DNA from: an uncultured virus (IMG/VR IMGVR_UViG_3300007759_000001)
Lineage: Duplodnaviria > Heunggongvirae > Uroviricota > Caudoviricetes
Strand: one strand, 5' to 3'
Virus record (IMG/VR): IMGVR_UViG_3300007759_000001
Length of the DNA: 20,000 nucleotides
Shown here: in pieces, positions 3,169-16,098 of the stretch
Position numbering within the stretch: the stretch's first letter is position 1
How the letters are laid out: every line of letters starts with the position of its first letter
The notes under the pieces: model-generated
Seen by the model: only the letters and a program-made list of their open reading frames with translations
The model's database searches: none
What the model was told of the DNA's origin: nothing
Made by a program: the position numbers and the translations under genes

Positions 3169-3921
3169 TCAAACGGATTTAGGGCCATTCTGACCCCCCC
3201 CACCGTAGGTGTAGGTCACTTTGGGGGCTGGGACGGGCTTGGGGGGGCTGTACAAGGCTGTGACGGCATTCCACGCAACAGGTGTGACCCTTGTTTTCGA
3301 TGCGAGTTCCGCAAATCCATCCAACGACATGTCTGCGCCACCGTAAACAACAATGTTTCGGTGCTCATTTCGGGGATAACCGTACGGCAAACGTACCCCG
3401 TTGCCTAGTCCTTGCCCTGTTAGCACCAACTGTTTCGGGTTGACCTCCACTGTCGGTGCATCAACTACGTTGCATGCACCGATCAGTCCTTCTCGTACTT
3501 TGCGCGCCGGGAGTGGTTCCTCAAAAAATACCCACAGGTGGTAGCCTTTGGATCGGGAGCGTTCTATCCATGAAGTTACTTGAAGTTGTTGTAGTACAGT
3601 CTGGAGGTTGACGGCGTGGGCTAGTGAGGCTTCTTCGCCTTCGTCAAAGTCTACGCACCCCCATTGGGTGACGTAGACGGCTGCGTCGTCTTCGGTGTTG
3701 TGTCGTGTCAACGGGTAAACACCGATGTTGGGTTTGTCTGCGTTGGTGAGGTGGTCTTCAACAGCCGTTGTGTAGCCTGCTCCTGTTGCTTTGTGCCATC
3801 CTCCGGCAGGGTTTTCCCATGGGCGAAACCCTTTATTGTCCGTGGGGTCGTCGGTGGCGATGTGTCCGCCTGCGAATAGGGCGGCGAACAGGTTTATTGT
3901 GTGGCGTGAGACATCTTCCAT
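3169..3921 (-). CDS. Archaeo-eukaryotic primase (AEP) superfamily primase/polymerase domain, possibly C-terminally truncated
   Basis: Motifs IGVYPL, WGCVDFD (DxD), ERSRSKGYHLWVFF (SxxGxH), EVNPKQ, GNGVRLP. Confidence 0.8.
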   Translation of the reverse strand: MEDVSRHTINLFAALFAGGHIATDDPTDNKGFRPWENPAGGWHKATGAGYTTAVEDHLTNADKPNIGVYPLTRHNTEDDAAVYVTQWGCVDFDEGEEASLAHAVNLQTVLQQLQVTSWIERSRSKGYHLWVFFEEPLPARKVREGLIGACNVVDAPTVEVNPKQLVLTGQGLGNGVRLPYGYPRNEHRNIVVYGGADMSLDGFAELASKTRVTPVAWNAVTALYSPPKPVPAPKVTYTYGGGGQNGPKSV

Positions 3922-4918: not shown

Positions 4919-5158
4919 TCAGACGATCACTTCCGTCTGAACGATGTGGCCCTCGTTCTCAAGATAGGTGTAAATCCACTCCCTGACCGCTGTGTCAGTC
5001 ACCTCAGGGTGACCACACGCTGTCACCTCCGCTTCGACTCGCCCTACCAGCGCCTCCGCAGTGACTGCGTGGGTGAAGGACAGGACGATCTCCAGTTGGC
5101 GCTGGAGGGACGCTAGGACCATCCTGTCGCCCTCATGGGTGTACATGCTGAACTGCAT
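4919..5158 (-). CDS. 79-aa hypothetical protein (MQFSMYTHEGDRMV…)
   Basis: SD GAGGAG, boxA-like leader, own promoter; hairpin 4878-4904 downstream. Confidence 0.85.
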   Translation of the reverse strand: MQFSMYTHEGDRMVLASLQRQLEIVLSFTHAVTAEALVGRVEAEVTACGHPEVTDTAVREWIYTYLENEGHIVQTEVIV

Positions 5159-5207
5159 GTTGTCTCCTCTTGTTGTCAACAAGTGGGGCGCTTCCCCACT
5201 AAGAAAC

Positions 5208-5276
5208 AGTATAGCACACTGGTATGACAGTGTCAAATCGGGCTGACTTGACAATGTCACACAGGGGTGCTATAAT
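5208..5276. promoter_or_regulatory. Divergent sigmaA promoter pair
   Basis: Minus TTGACA(5236-5231)-17-TATACT(5213-5208); plus TTGACA(5248-5253)-17-TATAAT(5271-5276). Confidence 0.9.
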
Positions 5277-5282
5277 ACCTAC

Positions 5283-5498
5283 ATGGCAACGAAGCAGAAC
5301 ACCGACGCAGTCGCAGCGATGTTCGCAACCCTCGCCACGCTTGGAGGCAATCACGCCTACCGGGCAGCGAAAGCGACCTACCGTCGCACTTGGGGAGCGG
5401 AGCGGGCACGCAAGGCGCAAGTACGGGCCGTGGAAGCGGAACGGGCGAGGCGCTACGCAGCGCTTGGCATCACGCCACGCGACATCTTCACTGACTGA
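5283..5498 (+). CDS. 71-aa Ala/Arg-rich protein, leaderless
   Basis: ATG 6 nt downstream of TATAAT, no SD. Confidence 0.8.
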   Translation: MATKQNTDAVAAMFATLATLGGNHAYRAAKATYRRTWGAERARKAQVRAVEAERARRYAALGITPRDIFTD

Positions 5499-5542
5499 GA
5501 ATCGGCCCTGACCGGGGGTGGCAACAGAACCGGTCGAAACAC

Positions 5543-5610
5543 CTTCCAGTCATGTAGAGGAGTGGGCAACGCCAGTATGGGTTGTAGGAGTTCGATTCTC
5601 CGCTGGAGGA
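5543..5610 (+). ncRNA. Degenerate tRNA-like element (acceptor stem plus T-arm)
   Basis: CUUCCAG/CUGGAGG+A; GGAG-UUCGAUU-CUCC; no canonical D or anticodon arm. Confidence 0.5.
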
Positions 5611-5645
5611 CTTGACAGTGTCGCACCTATGTGCTATACTATTAC

Positions 5646-5931
5646 TAACAGATCGAAGCCCTGCCAATAGGCAGGCGAATCGGAGGGGGACATAGCCTGA
5701 GTCGCGCTCAAGGCGAGTCCGTGACAGGATGGTATCTGTCACTCAGTCACCACGGCTGAGTAAAGCGGCTCTCCCCCAATGTCTAAGTGCTGGCGAATAC
5801 CACGCCAGCCGAGAACCGGCCAGCAACCCTGAAATGGCGTTGTTGCGAAGAACCGGCGCATTCGCGGAAGCGGTGATCCAGAGATGGACGCCGACTAGCC
5901 CCCGAGCCAGATCCCCCGAAAGGGGGTTTCT
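5646..5931 (+). ncRNA. About 285-nt highly structured ncRNA
   Basis: Promoter TTGACA(5612)-17-TATACT(5635); at least 7 hairpins; terminator 5911-5931 then cgcgtc; no SD-led ORF. Confidence 0.65.
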
Positions 5932-6020
5932 GCGCGTCTAGCCCCGCTTTTTGTTGCGACTTCCGGGGCGGACTGAGGGGGGACGCGAAAGAGGGGAGCC
6001 TTTCGGCTCCCCCCGTTTCT

Positions 6021-6146
6021 TTAGACTCTTGGGTCCGTAGACCAGTGGTAATCTTCGGCCAGTATGGCATCGCATCTATGGCAACCGCCGTCGCATTCGC
6101 ACCCTTCTTCCATGTAGGGCGCTTCTAGCCAAGCGTCGTAGTCCAT
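6021..6146 (-). CDS. 41-aa acidic Cys-cluster peptide (MDYDAWLEAPYMEEGCECDGGCHRCD…)
   Basis: SD AGGAG, own promoter, terminator 5988-6020. Confidence 0.85.
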   Translation of the reverse strand: MDYDAWLEAPYMEEGCECDGGCHRCDAILAEDYHWSTDPRV

Positions 6147-6193
6147 CGTGTCTCCTAAGTTGTAGTTGTCGTGGCCGGTAGCCACTGAGAATA

Positions 6194-6264
6194 AGTATAG
6201 CACATGGGTATGACACTGTCAAACCGGCCCCCGACTTGACACTGTCACACTGGTATGCTATACT
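6194..6264. promoter_or_regulatory. Divergent sigmaA promoter pair
   Basis: Minus TTGACA(6222-6217)-17-TATACT; plus TTGACA(6236-6241)-17-TATACT(6259-6264). Confidence 0.9.
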
Positions 6265-6319
6265 TGTTTCTAGTGGGAGCAACTGCTACCCACGTTGACA
6301 ACTAAATAGGAGACAGAGG

Positions 6320-6535
6320 ATGCACATCCCAATGTGTACCATCCAGCACCCCACCACAAGCGGTGCCCGTCTGATCACCCTCTGGGTGAACGGCGACGCA
6401 GCGATCCTGTGGGGCGACACGGAGTACCGTTACGAGAATCTCAACGCTTTCGCAGCGATGGCGACTTTCACGGTCACGAAGTCGATGGGCCAACTGGCTA
6501 ACTACATCAAGCGCAACAGCGACTTGGTGGGCTGA
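6320..6535 (+). CDS. 71-aa hypothetical protein
   Basis: Hairpin, boxA-like element and SD in leader; terminator 6540-6570 then cgcgtc. Confidence 0.85.
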   Translation: MHIPMCTIQHPTTSGARLITLWVNGDAAILWGDTEYRYENLNAFAAMATFTVTKSMGQLANYIKRNSDLVG

Positions 6536-6665
6536 GCGAAAGGGGAGGGGCGAAAGCCTCTCCCCTTCGTCGCGTCTAGAGCCAAGTCAATCAGCCCCGC
6601 CCCCCCAACTGCCTGCGGGGCGCACCCGGACGCGGGAAAACCCCCCTTTCGGGGGGTTCACCGGC

Positions 6666-6785
6666 TTACTCCTCAGAGTAAGTCCCCGCGTAGGGCGACG
6701 GATCGTCGTCCCAACGGCTGGGGTCCGGCCCGTACCACTCAGCCGCGAGGGCTTCGTAGTCCAGTTCGTCTCCTGCTGGATTCAT
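6666..6785 (-). CDS. 39-aa acidic micropeptide (MNPAGDELDYEALAAEWYGPDPSRWDDDPSPYAGTYSEE)
   Basis: SD AAGGAGGTG, ATG 6785, TAA 6668-6666, terminator 6636-6659. Confidence 0.9.
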   Translation of the reverse strand: MNPAGDELDYEALAAEWYGPDPSRWDDDPSPYAGTYSEE

Positions 6786-6841
6786 GTCTCACCTCCTTGG
6801 GTGAATCAGTGGGGCACTTTCTGGCCCCTCCAACAACAATA

Positions 6842-6910
6842 AGTATAGCACATGGGTAGGACAGTGTCAAACTGGGCCGAGTTGACAGTGTCACACCAGT
6901 ATGCTAGACT
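6842..6910. promoter_or_regulatory. Divergent sigmaA promoter pair
   Basis: Minus TTGACA(6870-6865)-17-TATACT; plus TTGACA(6882-6887)-17-TAGACT(6905-6910). Confidence 0.9.
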
Positions 6911-6961
6911 CTCTCTTAGTGGCCGACCCGGTCACGTTGACAACTAAATAGGAGACACATC

Positions 6962-7252
6962 ATGGCTCGTAAGACCAATCCGTTCGGGCGCATCGTCCCA
7001 CAAGACGATCCCTACGCCACCTACGTCAATGACGCAGGATGGACTTGGTACGTCGTAAAGACCTACCAGCATCCGGACAACGAGGATGGCTACTCCCGGT
7101 GGTTCTGCTACGTCTCGTCCCCGCACACATTCGGTGGATTCGACTTGGGAGACGTTTACCGGAAGGACGTTCTAGAGAACGCCCGACTGCTGAACGGCAC
7201 CGACGAGTGGATCGTGAACTACTCACGATTCGTTCACGGAGTTACAGTCTGA
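6962..7252 (+). CDS. 96-aa aromatic-rich phage protein (possibly DUF2958-like)
   Basis: Cassette leader and SD; WTWYV…RWFC.VSSP…G.FDLGDVY pattern; terminator 7254-7281; family assignment is tentative. Confidence 0.85.
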   Translation: MARKTNPFGRIVPQDDPYATYVNDAGWTWYVVKTYQHPDNEDGYSRWFCYVSSPHTFGGFDLGDVYRKDVLENARLLNGTDEWIVNYSRFVHGVTV

Positions 7253-7338
7253 GAAGGGGGAGGGCGAAAGCCCTCCCTTTTCCGCGTCCTGAATCAGTCC
7301 CGATCCCCGCTGCTGGCTGCGGGGCTAAACAAGACGCG

Positions 7339-7435
7339 AAAAAAGCGACGAGATCGAAAGGACGTATTCGCCTGTTGCTAGTTCCCTAATCGGGTCGAAT
7401 GGCGCTGATACGCATTGTCTCATCGCTTTCTTCAC
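7339..7435 (-). ncRNA. About 97-nt rod-like small RNA
   Basis: Promoter TTGACA(7469-7464)-17-TATACT(7446-7441); 5' aaagcgatgaga pairs with 3' tctcgtcgcttt followed by U-tract and cgcgtc. Confidence 0.65.
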
Positions 7436-7440
7436 AAGTA

Positions 7441-7876: not shown

Positions 7877-8004
7877 GTCGAAGAAATAGGAGCGCCATCC
7901 GAAAGGGTGGCGCTTCTGCGCGTCTGGAGTCAAGTCGATCAGCCCCGACTCCCGCTCCAGTACCGGGGCTAAATGGCTGCCCCCCCGTGAAGGGGGGCGG
8001 TGGA

Positions 8005-8085
8005 CTAACCGGTGAACCGGTCAGAACACACCAACCAAAGCGCCGCGCAAACGGTCACGATGGGCAGTAATGGTAGGAATACCAT
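8005..8085 (-). CDS. 26-aa single-pass membrane micropeptide (MVFLPLLPIVTVCAALWLVCSDRFTG)
   Basis: Promoter TTGACT(8152-8147)-17-TAGAAT(8129-8124), SD AAAGGA, TAG 8007-8005, hairpin 7979-7998. Confidence 0.75.
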   Translation of the reverse strand: MVFLPLLPIVTVCAALWLVCSDRFTG

Positions 8086-8123
8086 CGTTTCCTTTCTGTA
8101 TCCGCTCCTTGCGGAATAAAACT

Positions 8124-8484: not shown

Positions 8485-8744
8485 AAAAACCCCCCGCTTC
8501 CGTGTCAGGACTTCTAGTTCGTTTCACGCTTTCGTGCGTGGGGTGGAGGAACTGCGTTGCGGACCCAGCGTTTGGCCTCAAACCCTACAATCGGGCTACT
8601 GTCTCCGTGGCGGACTTTCGTCCTTTCTGTCCCTGTCCCATCGACACTGGCGGTTCTGGTAAAGAACTAGCCTAGTTCCTGTGGAATCGGGGGGTTTCTG
8701 TGGTTTCTAGAAACCCTCGCGTTGGGGTTTTCTCTCCCCAACAA
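8485..8744 (-). ncRNA. About 260-nt structured ncRNA closed by a long-range terminal helix
   Basis: Promoter TTGACA(8778-8773)-17-TATACT(8755-8750); aaaccccccg near the 5' end pairs with cggggggttt at the 3' end, then U-tract and cgcgtc; internal hairpins. Confidence 0.6.
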
Positions 8745-8749
8745 CAATA

Positions 8750-8871: not shown

Positions 8872-9078
8872 ATGGCGCACAAGCATGACATTGACGACAC
8901 CAACGGCGACGTTATGGATCGGGTCTACTTCTGCGGCGATTACTGCCACCGGAGTTGGTGCCAGAACCAGAACGTGGACTACGCCGGTTGGGACGGCTGC
9001 CACGAACTGGAGTTCGACACCCCCTGCGATTCGTGCGGGGATACGATCCCCGGCGTCGAAGGGCCGTATGTCTACTGA
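8872..9078 (+). CDS. 68-aa acidic Cys-rich putative Zn-binding protein
   Basis: Cassette leader and SD; CGDYC…CDSCG; terminator 9084-9106 then cgcgtc. Confidence 0.85.
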   Translation: MAHKHDIDDTNGDVMDRVYFCGDYCHRSWCQNQNVDYAGWDGCHELEFDTPCDSCGDTIPGVEGPYVY

Positions 9079-9168
9079 GAACTGGGGGGCTTCGGCCCCC
9101 CCTTTTCCGCGTCCCGAATCAGCCCCGAACCCACGCACCAACAGCGGGGCTAAATAAGGCGGGACGCG

Positions 9169-9216
9169 CAAAGCAGTGACGTATCGCTGTGATACAGCAG
9201 GTCCGTTGACCCGATA
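9169..9216 (-). ncRNA. Tiny RNA cassette of about 50 nt
   Basis: Consensus promoter 9250-9222; two small hairpins (gggtc-aacg-gacct; gtatc-acagc-gatac) then ttt-g-cgcgtc; no ORF. Confidence 0.5.
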
Positions 9217-9221
9217 AAGTA

Positions 9222-9616: not shown

Positions 9617-9645
9617 TTGACAAGCAGGCACCGGTATGCTATACT
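9617..9645 (+). promoter_or_regulatory. sigmaA promoter for the mini-tmRNA
   Basis: TTGACA(9617-9622)-17-TATACT(9640-9645). Confidence 0.9.
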
Positions 9646-9658
9646 AGTGCCAAGCACC

Positions 9659-9740
9659 GGGGGTGATCGGTGTAGACGGAAGTGAAAGCCGCATGTCGGA
9701 ACGCTTTCGGACCGGAGTTCGATTCTCCGCACCTCCACGA
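9659..9740 (+). ncRNA. Mini-tmRNA: tRNA-like domain of tmRNA without the mRNA-like domain
   Basis: Acceptor GGGGGUG/CACCUCC with G3:U70 and A73; D-loop analogue AUCGGUGUAGAC; helix GGAAGUG/CGCUUUC; GGAC; T-arm CGGAG-UUCGAUU-CUCCG; terminator 9769-9796. Confidence 0.8.
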
Positions 9741-9850
9741 AGTTGTCAACACGGCAATCGCCGGACAGAACCCCTGACCAATCGGTTGGGGGTTTTGTCG
9801 CGTACCCGTTTAGCCCCGGCCTCCCGAGGCGGGGAAGCCCCGAAAAATAA

Positions 9851-10008: not shown

Positions 10009-10137
10009 CTGAGCCAATGCTGCGACTGTGGCGAATGGACGGACATTGAGCCGTGCTACACCATAGACGAAACGCCGGACGGGGCGCTTTGCCCTGAGTG
10101 CGACCCGACGGACCACGACAAGGTCTACCCGGTCTGA
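10009..10137 (+). pseudogene. Zn-finger-like ORF remnant (…QCCDCGEW…LCPECDP…YPV*) with no ATG/GTG start
   Basis: CxxC…CxxC frame ending at TGA 10135-10137 before a UUCG hairpin; no in-frame canonical start after TAA 9943. Confidence 0.4.
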
Positions 10138-10310
10138 TCTGGTGGGACTTCGGTCCCCCCCTGACTAGACCGACTTGACAACTGTCATACCCGTATGCTA
10201 TACTACGGGTCTAACGTAAACGCTCGTTATCTACGGGCACCGAATAAGGGTCGGATCAGACCCCCATTCGGTGTCTTAGGGGTAACGGCTAACATAGGAA
10301 AGAGAAGGAC

Positions 10311-10574
10311 ATGGACAACACTTACCGGAACCTCCGGTTCACGCGTCACGCTATCGACATGGCTATTGCCCGTATCGACGGCGTGGACACACCGGAGCAG
10401 GCAAAGGCTCTGATGCGAAGCGAATACATCGCGTCGAAGATCACCTATGCCTCAAAGCGCCATCCTGAGCAAGACAAGATTCAGGGTGACCACATTTGTA
10501 TGGCCTACGAGCGGGCTGCACACAAGATCGTGACGCTGTTCATCAGCGGGCATGTGAGTGTCACACCCCGGTAG
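10311..10574 (+). CDS. 87-aa protein, possibly DUF4258/RelE-like
   Basis: Promoter TTGACA(10175)-18-TATACT, SD; LRFTRHA…KIVTLF pattern; family assignment is inference. Confidence 0.8.
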   Translation: MDNTYRNLRFTRHAIDMAIARIDGVDTPEQAKALMRSEYIASKITYASKRHPEQDKIQGDHICMAYERAAHKIVTLFISGHVSVTPR

Positions 10575-13611: not shown

Positions 13612-13753
13612 TCCGACTGTCACACCCGGCTGCTAGACTTGTTTCTAGCAAGTCGGGGGTGACTCCACTTGTGCTGATGCTGCCGACTTGACAGCGTCAC
13701 ACACATGTGCTATACTGCATATGTACCAACCAACAACTCATAGGAGACATACT

Positions 13754-14479
13754 ATGACAAACGAAAACCTACCCCAGTGCTGGCAGGACTACAACGATGT
13801 TCTGGCAGCAGGGATCGACAGGATCATCCTGTTCGGCCCACCGGGGACCGGCAAGACATTCGCCGGACTCAACATGGGCGATACGGACTCCGGTTCGTGG
13901 CGTCTCGTCTGCACAGAAGACATGACTAACTTTGACGTAACGGGAGGCTTCCTCCCCGGTCAGGACGGGTCATTCGACTGGAACGATGGATCGGCTATCA
14001 AGGCATGGCGTGGAAACGGCATCCGGGGTGGCAGGCTCGTCGTAGACGAGATTGACAAGGCAGGTGGCGATGTATTCGCAACCTTGCTTGCCATGACGGA
14101 TACCGTCGATTCGGCTAAGTGGGAGAACCCCGCGACTGGCCGGGTGGAAACGCCTAAGGACGGGTTCAGCGTTATCATGACAACGAACATTGAGAACATG
14201 GAGGAACTGCCTTCTGCTTTGAAGGACCGTTTCCCGTGTGCGATTCGTATCAACGAACCGCATCCCAATGCGTTGTTGAACCTGCCGACCAGCATTCGGG
14301 AATACGCCCGAAAGATGGCCGACGCGGGTGATCGCCGGATTAGCCTTCGCCAGTTCTACGCCTACGGACAGTTGGCGCGGAGCCACGGCGACGAGCGTGC
14401 TGCCAAACTGATCTTCGGATCACGGGCAGAAGCCTTCCTTGACGCTGTCAAGGTTGACACGGTCGGATCGGCTTCCTGA
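13754..14479 (+). CDS. MoxR-type / AAA_5 (CbbQ/CobS-like) AAA+ ATPase, 241 aa
   Basis: Walker A GPPGTGKT, Walker B LVVDEIDK, sensor-1 TTN, Arg finger ALKDRF; promoter 13688-13716; SD AGGAG. Confidence 0.9.
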   Translation: MTNENLPQCWQDYNDVLAAGIDRIILFGPPGTGKTFAGLNMGDTDSGSWRLVCTEDMTNFDVTGGFLPGQDGSFDWNDGSAIKAWRGNGIRGGRLVVDEIDKAGGDVFATLLAMTDTVDSAKWENPATGRVETPKDGFSVIMTTNIENMEELPSALKDRFPCAIRINEPHPNALLNLPTSIREYARKMADAGDRRISLRQFYAYGQLARSHGDERAAKLIFGSRAEAFLDAVKVDTVGSAS

Positions 14480-14601
14480 TCCCAGCGAGTGGTTGGTGGG
14501 TGCTTCGGCACCCCCAACCCTCGCCCACACTTGCCTGTCACACCCATGTGATAGGCTATGCAAAGCAAGTAAGCAAGTAACCAATCACGTTAGGAGACGA
14601 G

Positions 14602-16098
14602 ATGGAAACTATAGAACATAAGGATCTACGCCCCATGCCTGAACTAATCAGGCGTAGGGATGGAGCCAATGACGAACCTGCGGAGTGGGAGATTCACCCA
14701 TGCGCCGCGGAGCGTGGCCTACCCCGAACGGGTGTGCTACCTCGCACGATGATCGTGCCTGTTCAAGACTTTGAACTGGACCGTGTCATCAGGGCGCATG
14801 AGATGATGCACGCAAAGGTTTCACCCGGCGACAGGTCGGTATGGGTCAACAGGGGCATTTGCTCCGACCGGGCCATGATCTGTGCGGAGGAAGCCCGTGT
14901 GAACTTCCTAGTGAGCAAGGCTGGATTTGATCTGGACATTCTTGAGGATGGCACAGAGATGAATGCAGGCGAGCGCATCGCGGAACGCGGCGACTGGGCA
15001 GAGGCTGTTTACTTCACGGCCAGTGTTTCTGGCTGTGGGGGCTTGAACAAGTACCTCGTAGGCATCAGGCGACACCGACCGGGATGGGGACCACGACTCC
15101 GTCGTATCCATCAGTTGCTTCAAAAGGAACTGCGTCAACTGTCACGCACGAACCACACGAGTTTGTGTTCGACAATGACTAGTTCTGGCAGGCTTGACCC
15201 GGCCAACGAACTTATCGAAGGATTCTTTCATACAGAATCCATCGGAGAGTGGCTTGACCGACTGGCCAACCCCGAAACTGACGAGGACGAGAAGACCGAA
15301 GGCGATACCACAGCAGGCGACACCGAAGAAGGTGGCGACGAGGGTGGTGCTGGCGAGGTCGATACGGACTCCGAAGAAGAGGCACCTATCTCCAAAGAAG
15401 ACTTGGAGAACCAGAAGCCTGTTCGCAGCGACGAGGCTGGGTCTTGGTCACAGTTGAATGTGAAGAAGCAGAACCTCACCCGGCACGTTCCGGGTGGACT
15501 GGGGAAGCGTCGAATCGCATCCAACATGGGTCGCAACCCGCGTCGTGTTGGCCGGATGTTCACCGATCCGCAGAAGCGGATTTTTGATCGGAAGGTCAAG
15601 GGCAATGGAGGTGTCGTGCTTATCGACTACTCAGGCTCAATGGCTTTGTCAGAGAAGGATGTGTTGGACATTATGGATGCAGCCCCCGGTTGCACCGTAG
15701 CGTGCTACACAACCAACGACTTTGACAGGGACGGCAAAGCGAACTGCTGGATTTTGGGAGAGCGTGGTCGGATGACCACAGCGATTCCAGAGTCTCGCGG
15801 AGGCAACGGTGTCGATCATCCCGCATTGGTGTGGGCTGTGCAGCAGAAGCAGCGCAGGAACGCACCAGTCGTGTGGGTGACTGATGGCGGGGTGCTTGGT
15901 CCGGGTCAGGGCTACAGGGATCAGTTGGCGATGCAGTGCATCAAGACTGTCCAGAAGTCGAAGGTGCTTATCCGAAACGAGGTTTCGGATGCCGTCGAAC
16001 TTCTCCACGACTTGGCGACAGGGAAGCCTGTCAAGCAGTGGTGGCCTGCATGGTTCAGGCGGACCTACGAGAACCAGACCGGAACCAAACTGGTCTGA
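14602..16098 (+). CDS. vWA-domain partner of the MoxR ATPase with N-terminal HExxH metallopeptidase-like domain (CobT-like architecture)
   Basis: HEMMH…EEARVN, acidic linker, MIDAS DYSGS…VTDG; adjacent to the AAA+ gene. Confidence 0.85.
   Translation: METIEHKDLRPMPELIRRRDGANDEPAEWEIHPCAAERGLPRTGVLPRTMIVPVQDFELDRVIRAHEMMHAKVSPGDRSVWVNRGICSDRAMICAEEARVNFLVSKAGFDLDILEDGTEMNAGERIAERGDWAEAVYFTASVSGCGGLNKYLVGIRRHRPGWGPRLRRIHQLLQKELRQLSRTNHTSLCSTMTSSGRLDPANELIEGFFHTESIGEWLDRLANPETDEDEKTEGDTTAGDTEEGGDEGGAGEVDTDSEEEAPISKEDLENQKPVRSDEAGSWSQLNVKKQNLTRHVPGGLGKRRIASNMGRNPRRVGRMFTDPQKRIFDRKVKGNGGVVLIDYSGSMALSEKDVLDIMDAAPGCTVACYTTNDFDRDGKANCWILGERGRMTTAIPESRGGNGVDHPALVWAVQQKQRRNAPVVWVTDGGVLGPGQGYRDQLAMQCIKTVQKSKVLIRNEVSDAVELLHDLATGKPVKQWWPAWFRRTYENQTGTKLV

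Follow-up and report, generated by a model that had tools for sequence, protein, structure and literature searches.

The stretch of DNA considered here, hereafter the window, comprises 20,000 nucleotides (nt) and belongs to a marine phage that has not been cultivated. Its sequence equals that of the IMG/VR contig L001 (100% identity) and maps to the minus strand of the 53.9-kb record G001, and the completeness estimates of 29–41% for these records imply a genome of ~125 kb. On the plus strand of the window, positions 5646–5931 form a unit that runs from promoter to terminator, in which hairpins are densely packed over 285 nt and no open reading frame (ORF) is conserved. This unit very probably represents a functional non-coding structured RNA. 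Judged from its sequence and those of its relatives, it is an RNA gene new to the catalogues, made of two modules and with a well-supported structure. What was established for it comprises a promoter with hairpins, conservation in two clades, compensatory changes, strand specificity, modularity, the lack of a conserved ORF and absence from Rfam.

The unit is preceded by a sigma-70-type promoter at 5612–5640 (+), TTGACA-17 nt-TG-n-TATACT, which matches the consensus at 11 of 12 positions and carries a TG before the −10 box; a preliminary description of the locus had claimed a consensus promoter. Transcription would start at ~5647. Behind the promoter lies module A (5655–5779, +), a 125-nt RNA in which a 5' hairpin, P0, is followed by a three-way junction of the helices P1, P2 and P3; it is supported by an eight-sequence alignment (A2), a covariance model and pair counts. 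The hairpin P5, GCUGGCG-AAUACCA-CGCCAGC (5789–5809, +), stands between the modules in clade A only, and module B, a second structured RNA, follows at about 5816–5905 (+; alignment A3). The sequence then offers a terminator-like hairpin, CCCCC-GAAA-GGGGG followed by UUUCU (5913–5931, +), which is conserved in the related contigs L102, L132, L135 and L107. Two more GC hairpins, GCCCCG...CGGGGC and GGGGAGCC-UUUC-GGCUCCCC, lie at 5940–6012; the second is the terminator listed by the terminator scan, and it is common to the RNA unit and the convergent gene at 6021–6146 (−). The 3' end of the RNA could lie at about 5931, or at about 6015 by way of the listed terminator (5993–6012). The terminator of the preliminary description is present as a hairpin with a U tract, although the scan did not list it. 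The same description had proposed a single 285-nt RNA with its own cassette; the cassette holds, but the single fold gives way to two independently occurring modules that are transcribed together.

Folding of the whole unit on the plus strand gave a minimum free energy of −120.8 kcal/mol and a z-score of −3.95, with one of 200 shuffled sequences folding equally well, whereas the z-score of the minus strand was only −1.33. The plus-strand RNA is taken as the selected molecule because many of its pairs are G-U on this strand and would be A-C mismatches on the other. Examples from the module A alignment are the U-G pairs at columns 49/53 (8 of 8 sequences) and at columns 69/143 (7 of 7).

With respect to coding potential, the scan for Shine-Dalgarno (SD) sequences returned only a 25-codon GTG frame at 5618–5695, which overlaps the promoter, in agreement with the earlier statement that no SD-led ORF is present. 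It might still be argued that the unit encodes a small protein, from ORF 5729–5941 (70 aa), or some other short peptide, since the window has an ATG-started frame of 70 codons and the adjoining unit at 5283–5498 seems leaderless, so that a missing SD does not exclude translation in this phage. The frame, however, shrinks to 58 codons in L102, 38 in L155 and 5 in L132 and L135; in clade B it has 12 codons in L104 and L123 and 8 in L150, and the homologous ATG is missing from the short form of the RNA found in L134. Substitutions are spread over the codon positions (3/2/4 between the window and L102, 8/11/9 between the window and L132) with no third-position bias, L132 carries frame-shifting 1-nt indels, and neither Pfam nor PHROG gave a match. 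The codon-type conservation that would have spoken against the preliminary description is thus lacking. On these comparisons ORF 5729–5941 is refuted as a conserved gene, and a peptide product is barely credible.

Module A is predicted to be a new RNA family that consists of a 5' hairpin and a compact three-way junction, and the covariance model R1 was built from the eight distinct sequences of A2. P0 (5658–5676, +) has seven pairs, a bulged C and an AAUA loop, its outer pairs and bulge being read directly from the sequences; two of its pairs change on both sides between the clades (CG/UA, CG/GC), and all cells pair. P1 joins GGGGGA (5685–5690, +) to UCCCCC (5772–5777) and is invariant in 8 of 8 sequences, as is the junction CAUA (5691–5694, +) that sets 4 nt between P1 and P2. 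In P2 (5695–5714, +) three pairs, a bulged A and four further pairs are capped by the pentaloop U(C/A)GCG; all cells pair, and changes on both sides affect 3 of its 8 pairs (AU/CG, UA/UG/GC, GC/AU). P3 (5715–5722 with 5765–5771, +; bulged U at 5718) abuts both P2 and P1 and encloses two hairpins, P3a (5723–5740, +; loop AUGGUA) and P3b (5741–5761, +; loop ACCAC). The hairpins noticed earlier at 5660–5675, 5721–5742, 5742–5760, 5789–5809, 5821–5845 and 5877–5888 all recur in the single-sequence and the consensus folds. A further one, placed at 5688–5720, exists with other limits and corresponds to P2, while the proposed closing pair 5682–5687/5769–5774 is three bases off. Its register is broken because 5684 is a C in the relatives; P1 is the actual closing helix, and 5765–5771 belongs to P3.

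The consensus structure of module A is backed by pair statistics. Standard pairing is found in 98.4% of 307 cells, in comparison with 89.7% in column shuffles and 35–49% with slid partners. Changes on both sides occur in 11 of 40 pairs, a count reached by 0 of 500 shuffles, and the covariation score is 0.283 against 0.132 in the shuffles, these shuffle figures being supportive and not probabilities. The compensatory changes sit in P0, P2, P3a and P3b, and in a contig of the sequencing run X11 a G>A change at 5721 appears together with C>T at 5766, by which the P3 pair is kept. The fold z-score of the module is −3.91. A loop-loop contact between UGGU of P3a and ACCA of P3b, available in most long forms, was considered and is not claimed, since its bases do not covary and the short form lacks it.

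Module B is, from its predicted fold and its distribution, an independent second structured RNA that is separable from module A. Alignment A3, made of four sequences (the window, L102, L132 and L107), gives the helices 5816–5819/5853–5856, 5820–5826/5840–5847, 5862–5867/5900–5905, 5869–5875/5889–5896 and 5878–5880/5885–5887 on the plus strand. With the terminator included, 41 pairs are predicted and 5 of them change on both sides; the covariation on which the preliminary description had made its proposal depend is present in both modules. The tip hairpin changes from UCCA/UGGA to CCC/GGG and to CCU/AGG, and fold z-scores are −3.18 in the window and −3.96 in L107.

The family had not been recognised in the preliminary description, and Rfam 15 is likewise empty both for the RNA of the window and for five homologue loci. 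A search with its 4227 models at the gathering threshold over the whole window returned only a tmRNA match at 9659–9740. Lowering the requirement to E≤10 over 5400–6300 gave nothing inside 5646–5931, and at E≤1 nothing fell on the RNA in the homologue loci L123, L104, L150, L121 and L102. A likeness of some words of L123 to 5S rRNA was rejected, as RF00001 did not match the five homologue loci at E≤1 or the window at E≤10. It is also here that a self-cleaving or otherwise catalytic RNA has to be weighed. The compactness of the three-way junction and the invariance of its core and bulges would allow a catalytic fold, but no known ribozyme family of Rfam 15 matches, and neither a repeated or rolling-circle context nor a need for processing is evident. 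Catalysis is therefore highly improbable, and of the roles suggested beforehand the ribozyme gained no support, whereas the protein sponge would be the best fit.

The relatives of the RNA were collected by probing a metagenome collection with the phage's own repeated promoter motif, which yielded 58 loci (47 marine contigs). Both nhmmer and blastn with 5646–5935 matched 9 of these 47 contigs, and searches with two core patterns added one IMG/VR contig, L155. Besides the window, 9 contigs carry module A; together they give 8 distinct sequences from two phage clades, with a core of 98–156 nt. The full-length unit occurs in L102 (96% identical) and L132 (90%). L135 retains the first about 170 nt and passes directly into the terminator, module B being absent, and all that L107 has is the final ~120 nt (78% identical), placed immediately after a promoter of its own. 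In the AT-richer clade B (L104, L123, L150, L134/L112/L145, L120/L121) the RNA is limited to the first ~125 nt, at ~77% identity, and here module A lies between the promoter and an immediate intrinsic terminator at the site that P5 occupies in clade A. In the short form, seen in L134 and L121, one small hairpin takes the place of P3a and P3b. The promoter stands ahead of module A in the window, in L132/L135, in L102 (about 75 nt further upstream) and, within clade B, in L104, L123, L150, L134 and L121.

Conservation of the core exceeds that of the proteins. Alignment A2 has 60 invariant columns, and the RNA core is about 77% identical between the clades, while the few proteins common to both are only 35–43% identical. 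The GC content of the contigs is about 55% in clade A and about 46–47% in clade B, and that of the RNA core lies at 52–62% in both. Two clades, long invariant runs, a steady GC content and diverged proteins are together the signature of a functional RNA in a self-contained cassette.

Searches beyond these contigs added no members. In IMG/VR an exact 47-mer and the promoter pattern matched only the window's own contig, and none of 80 IMG/VR loci reached through neighbouring proteins (77 from the 498-aa protein, 3 from the primase) carried the RNA by nhmmer or dense promoters. Fifteen loci (8 + 7) from two further IMG/VR patterns were set aside as chance, as no covariance-model hit at E≤1 was obtained and nhmmer recovered only the own contig and the L155 record. 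Among cultured phages (50,697 records), blastn with 5000–7000 and 13688–16098 and tblastn with the 498-aa protein gave no match. In cellular genomes the strict pattern had 0 matches; the five matches of a gapped pattern, in unrelated metagenome-assembled genomes, are likewise attributed to chance, with no covariance-model hit at E≤10 and none in the whole genomes. Model R1 was run over 62 of roughly 156 sources, duplicates and most of the distant IMG/VR loci being left out, and recovered solely sequences already known, at 82–143 bits. It was also empty in 151 genomes from the class of G008, although an empty answer of such a search shows little.

The promoter belongs to a repeated architecture. 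The window holds 41 promoter-like sites, against 10.4 ± 3.4 in shuffled sequence; agreement with the 12 consensus positions reaches 11 or 12 in 23 of them, and nearly all of these have the extended −10 TG. The copy at 5612–5640 is one of ~25 near-identical ones in the window, often arranged as divergent pairs, and repeats of 55–140 nt with 75–91% identity are found around these promoters. What usually follows is a 5' hairpin (UAGUGG...CCAC), the conserved leader TTGACAACTAAATAGGAGACA and the ATG of a tiny ORF, as at 6236–6320, 6882–6962 and 5236–5158 (−). The unit behind 5612–5640 differs from its neighbours in having neither this hairpin nor the TTGACAACTAAATAGGAGACA leader. Relatives in the sequencing runs X10 and X11 are joined from 5642 to 5981, the shared promoter and terminator enclosing 348 letters of different sequence, and this insert is, to judge by its position, alternative cargo in the same frame. 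In L155 a 16-nt direct repeat, GCAAATGGYATTGCGG, brackets module A at 2923–2938 and 3233–3248, 310 nt apart, where 0.01 would be expected by chance; it may mark a different cassette frame or the footprint of an insertion.

Such observations could be taken to mean that the unit has no RNA function of its own and is recombination or terminator filler of repeated cassettes, or an element acting at the level of DNA. The region is indeed a mosaic of repeated promoters and GC hairpins, and both the exchangeable 348-letter cargo and the direct repeat around the RNA of L155 would suit filler. Against it stand a core conserved far above the surrounding genes in two clades of different GC content, the compensatory changes, the strand-specific G-U pairs and an orientation to the promoter that is always the same. 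Filler is very unlikely.

How this RNA would act can be approached from what is conserved in it. Helices, junction and bulges are invariant, single strands are short and variable, and peripheral hairpins are replaceable; recognition of the shape by a protein is for this reason favoured over an antisense mechanism. The conserved single-stranded stretches of module A measure at most about 4–6 nt. A trans-acting small RNA that pairs with host or phage mRNAs, possibly with the help of a chaperone, would need a short exposed seed, for example in the P0 loop, in the linker between P0 and P1 or in the 3' tail. The 3' side of the core in clade B, where an A-rich linker leads to an intrinsic terminator and its U tail, is like that of many small RNAs that depend on a chaperone, and the P0 loop with its 3' flank reads AAUAGG, a word that recurs in the phage mRNA leaders AAAUAGGAGA of both clades. 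This sharing could reflect competition for a factor that binds the leaders. The linker and the tail, however, differ between the clades (GCGAAUCGG vs ACAUAACGG, AAUGUCUAAG vs AAAGACGCAAAG), the longest invariant unpaired run is 4 nt, and the conserved parts are helices and not single strands, which makes a base-pairing regulator unlikely.

Protein binding as a decoy or scaffold has its main rival in mimicry of a tRNA, namely of its upper half, the minihelix. In this case P1 would stack on P3 as the acceptor stem does on the T stem, with P2 at the place of the D arm; RNase P would cut before P1, and the product, alongside the tRNA-Glu and the tmRNA-like RNA of the phage, would serve as decoy or substrate either for a host enzyme directed at tRNA or for a defence that cleaves tRNA. 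The geometry agrees in that the 3' strand of P3 (5765–5771) runs directly into that of P1 (5772–5777), and the gap between P1 and P2 is the 4-nt CAUA. The genomic context agrees as well: a tRNA-Glu(UUC) in L132 and L135 ends exactly at the −35 box of the RNA promoter, the window has at this place a tRNA-like remnant with acceptor stem and T arm intact, and an 82-nt tmRNA-like tRNA domain is found in the same genomes. Yet the tRNA, tmRNA and related models of Rfam, RF00005 and RF00023 among them, did not match module A (E≤10 in the window, E≤1 at the five homologue loci), and ARAGORN found no tRNA or tmRNA in the window. Alignments A1 and A2 contain no T-loop-like sequence and no encoded CCA, P1 being followed by AAUG, GAUG or AAAG. 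The upstream P0 is conserved with covariation, which is unexpected in a 5' leader that is discarded, and the tRNA adjacency is confined to clade A. A tRNA mimic is accordingly rather unlikely.

The explanation that we consider best overall, with an even chance of being right, is a two-module early RNA gene whose product serves as a decoy or scaffold through its shape. Host RNA polymerase would make the RNA in quantity early in infection from the consensus sigma-70-type promoter. The transcript, ending at 5913–5931 or at the back-up terminator 5993–6012, would carry the separable modules A and B, which are probably parted by processing. It would be stable because nearly every base is paired, and would work as a protein-binding decoy or scaffold and not as an antisense regulator. 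Protein binding as the specific mode of action, suggested by the pattern of conservation, is put forward tentatively, at somewhat below even probability.

Several observations weigh against this explanation or narrow it. The conservation pattern is the one line of evidence from which protein binding is derived, and no protein gene adjoins the RNA in both clades, the flanking genes being unshared and no partner protein linked. P1 and most of P3 are invariant, so that covariation neither supports nor contradicts them, and the 8 distinct sequences amount to about 3–4 lineages, for which the shuffle control overstates significance. No sigma-70 promoter is seen in the roughly 90 nt shown upstream of module A in L155. 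The terminator at 5913–5931 falls below the T-run criterion of the scan (4 T in 8) and so was not listed, which makes it weak by that rule. None of the 20 listed sequencing runs that contain the stretch is on record as RNA, and one metatranscriptome from the same study as the run X9 contains next to none of its words.

The cassette frame appears to resemble the early promoter/stem-loop elements (PeSL) of T4-type phages, here with RNA as cargo. PeSL are described as stem-loops combined with strong early promoters of sigma-70-like type that recur in plastic regions, where recombination between their copies shuffles the genes that they precede (PMC2839356; Arbiol et al. 2014, PMC4122927). The likeness to the PeSL of PMC4122927 lies in near-identical strong early promoters with GC-rich stem-loops, in a plastic region of tiny genes and in the swapping of cargo. 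A repeated strong sigma-70-like promoter with an associated stem-loop is found in the window, where hairpins stand either behind the −10 box or on the flanks of the units. A plastic region with exchange of cargo is found as well, in the form of the X10/X11 insert, of module B alone in L107 and absent from L135, and of flanks not shared by the clades. There are also differences: the cargo here is a structured RNA instead of an ORFan, the stem-loop lies mostly after the −10 box as a 5' RNA hairpin, behind which comes a conserved SD leader, and membership of the T4 type lacks support, the parts tried in blastn and tblastn having no match in the 50,697 phage records.

Other comparisons concern the RNA itself. 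The genes of the T4 RNAs RNAC and RNAD lie beside the tRNA genes of T4. They share with module A, which directly follows tRNA-Glu in L132 and L135, the character of small, stable-looking phage RNAs next to tRNA genes. In PMC9697503 they are "RNAs of yet unknown functions" and are described as late RNAs, in contrast with the early-type sigma-70 promoter of the present unit. Sequence similarity was not detected (blastn of 5000–7000 against the phage collection was empty). What module A has in common with the tRNA and tmRNA domains (RF00005, RF00023) is that its closing helix stacks on another helix by way of an uninterrupted 3' strand; it differs in the lack of a model match, T loop, CCA, anticodon and tag region. 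The bacterial 6S RNA and CsrB/RsmZ sequester proteins, and the likeness to them is limited to the proposed action, an abundant structured RNA that titrates a protein. Unlike 6S RNA, module A has no long helix with a central bubble; unlike CsrB/RsmZ, it has no repeated GGA loops, and clade B lacks the GGA that clade A has in its P3a loop. No Rfam model matches it.

To our knowledge, few structured RNAs of phages have solid comparative support, and a role is known for almost none of them. Module A is tractable for probing, pull-downs and structural work, being compact, with a clear three-way-junction fold and conserved bulges. The cassettes described here suggest that shuffling units of promoter and stem-loop of the T4-type kind can bear RNA genes and can fuse or separate RNA modules, which could give phages a simple way of assembling toolkits of small RNAs and of exchanging them. 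The neighbours of the unit, a tRNA, a pseudo-tRNA and a mini tmRNA-like RNA, direct the search for function to translation or to tRNA-directed conflict. A bolder reading, which must be considered speculative and of low probability, sees the region as an "RNA island" in which early promoter cassettes carry structured RNAs: modules A and B, a tRNA-Glu (or pseudo-tRNA), a tmRNA-like domain of the alanine type that lacks an anticodon, and four or more additional conserved units that are folded and promoter-driven. Within it, module A would mimic the top half of a tRNA or a ribosome factor, disarming host defences directed at tRNA or translation or re-tooling ribosome rescue early in infection. The interest of the RNA is moderate at present and would be greater if the link to tRNA or translation is true.

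Among the neighbouring RNAs, the mini tmRNA occupies the unit 9617–9800, in which a promoter at 9617–9645 (+) drives an 82-nt RNA (9659–9740). It matches the Rfam tmRNA model through its tRNA-like domain only, with 59.3 bits in the whole-window scan and 50.7 bits in a small scan. The acceptor, GGGGGUG/CACCUCC, has a G-U third pair, the T arm is present, and 6 nt stand in place of the 294 model positions of tag and pseudoknots, so that there is no coding part. A terminator lies at about 9770–9797, and the RNA is conserved in L132, L135, L127/L128, L131 and L126. The permuted tmRNA called by ARAGORN in L135 (14097–14737), with a 25-aa "tag", is probably a false call built around this domain. The "tag" matches the C-terminal end of an ordinary-looking frame, whose equivalent in the window lies at about 10070–10137, and the permuted-tmRNA model of Rfam reaches only 25.6 bits in the window against a gathering threshold of 47.

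Upstream of the RNA promoter, L132 and L135 have a normal tRNA-Glu(UUC) that extends as far as the −35 box (10285–10357 in L135). The remnant in the window, at 5543–5610 (+), has an acceptor stem with compensatory changes relative to L135, the same T arm and an aberrant middle; it received no ARAGORN call and no Rfam tRNA match. The relatives in X10 and X11 carry 42 extra letters at 5574/5575, within this element. No ORF of at least 30 aa, whether SD-led or leaderless, lies within 400 nt in six other promoter units, namely 8549–8749 (−), 7270–7440 (−), 7960–8123 (−), 10205–10404 (+), 251–451 (−) and 9021–9221 (−). Fold z-scores of −3.5 to −4.9 were obtained for 8600–8749, 7291–7440, 7975–8123 and 10205–10354. 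All six are conserved in relatives, four of them also in the 125-kb contig L127/L128, and a T-arm-like GGGUUCGACUCCC lies within the unit 302–451 (−). They are candidates for further small RNAs, and in this respect the region resembles an RNA island.

As for protein genes, a 71-aa ORF at 5283–5498 (+) begins with an ATG 6 nt after the −10 box of the promoter 5248–5276 and is 65–67% identical over 63 aa in L132 and L135. The unit 5248–5498 has the look of a leaderless mRNA and seems to continue into the tRNA-like element. Another start that may be leaderless is found 4 nt after the −10 box at 13716 (13688–14479, +). A deacetylase-like protein common to both clades (300–309 aa) is encoded 6–8 kb from the RNA; this histone-deacetylase-family protein is 43% identical between the clades and is found at 2015–2944 (−) in L158. 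The window also encodes an archaeo-eukaryotic primase domain of the "TOTE conflict system" type (3169–3921, −; PF22548, 1.3e-16), a MoxR-like AAA_5 ATPase (13754–14479, +) and the 498-aa protein of PHROG 33218 (14602–16098, +), which is widespread in IMG/VR, with 77 loci.

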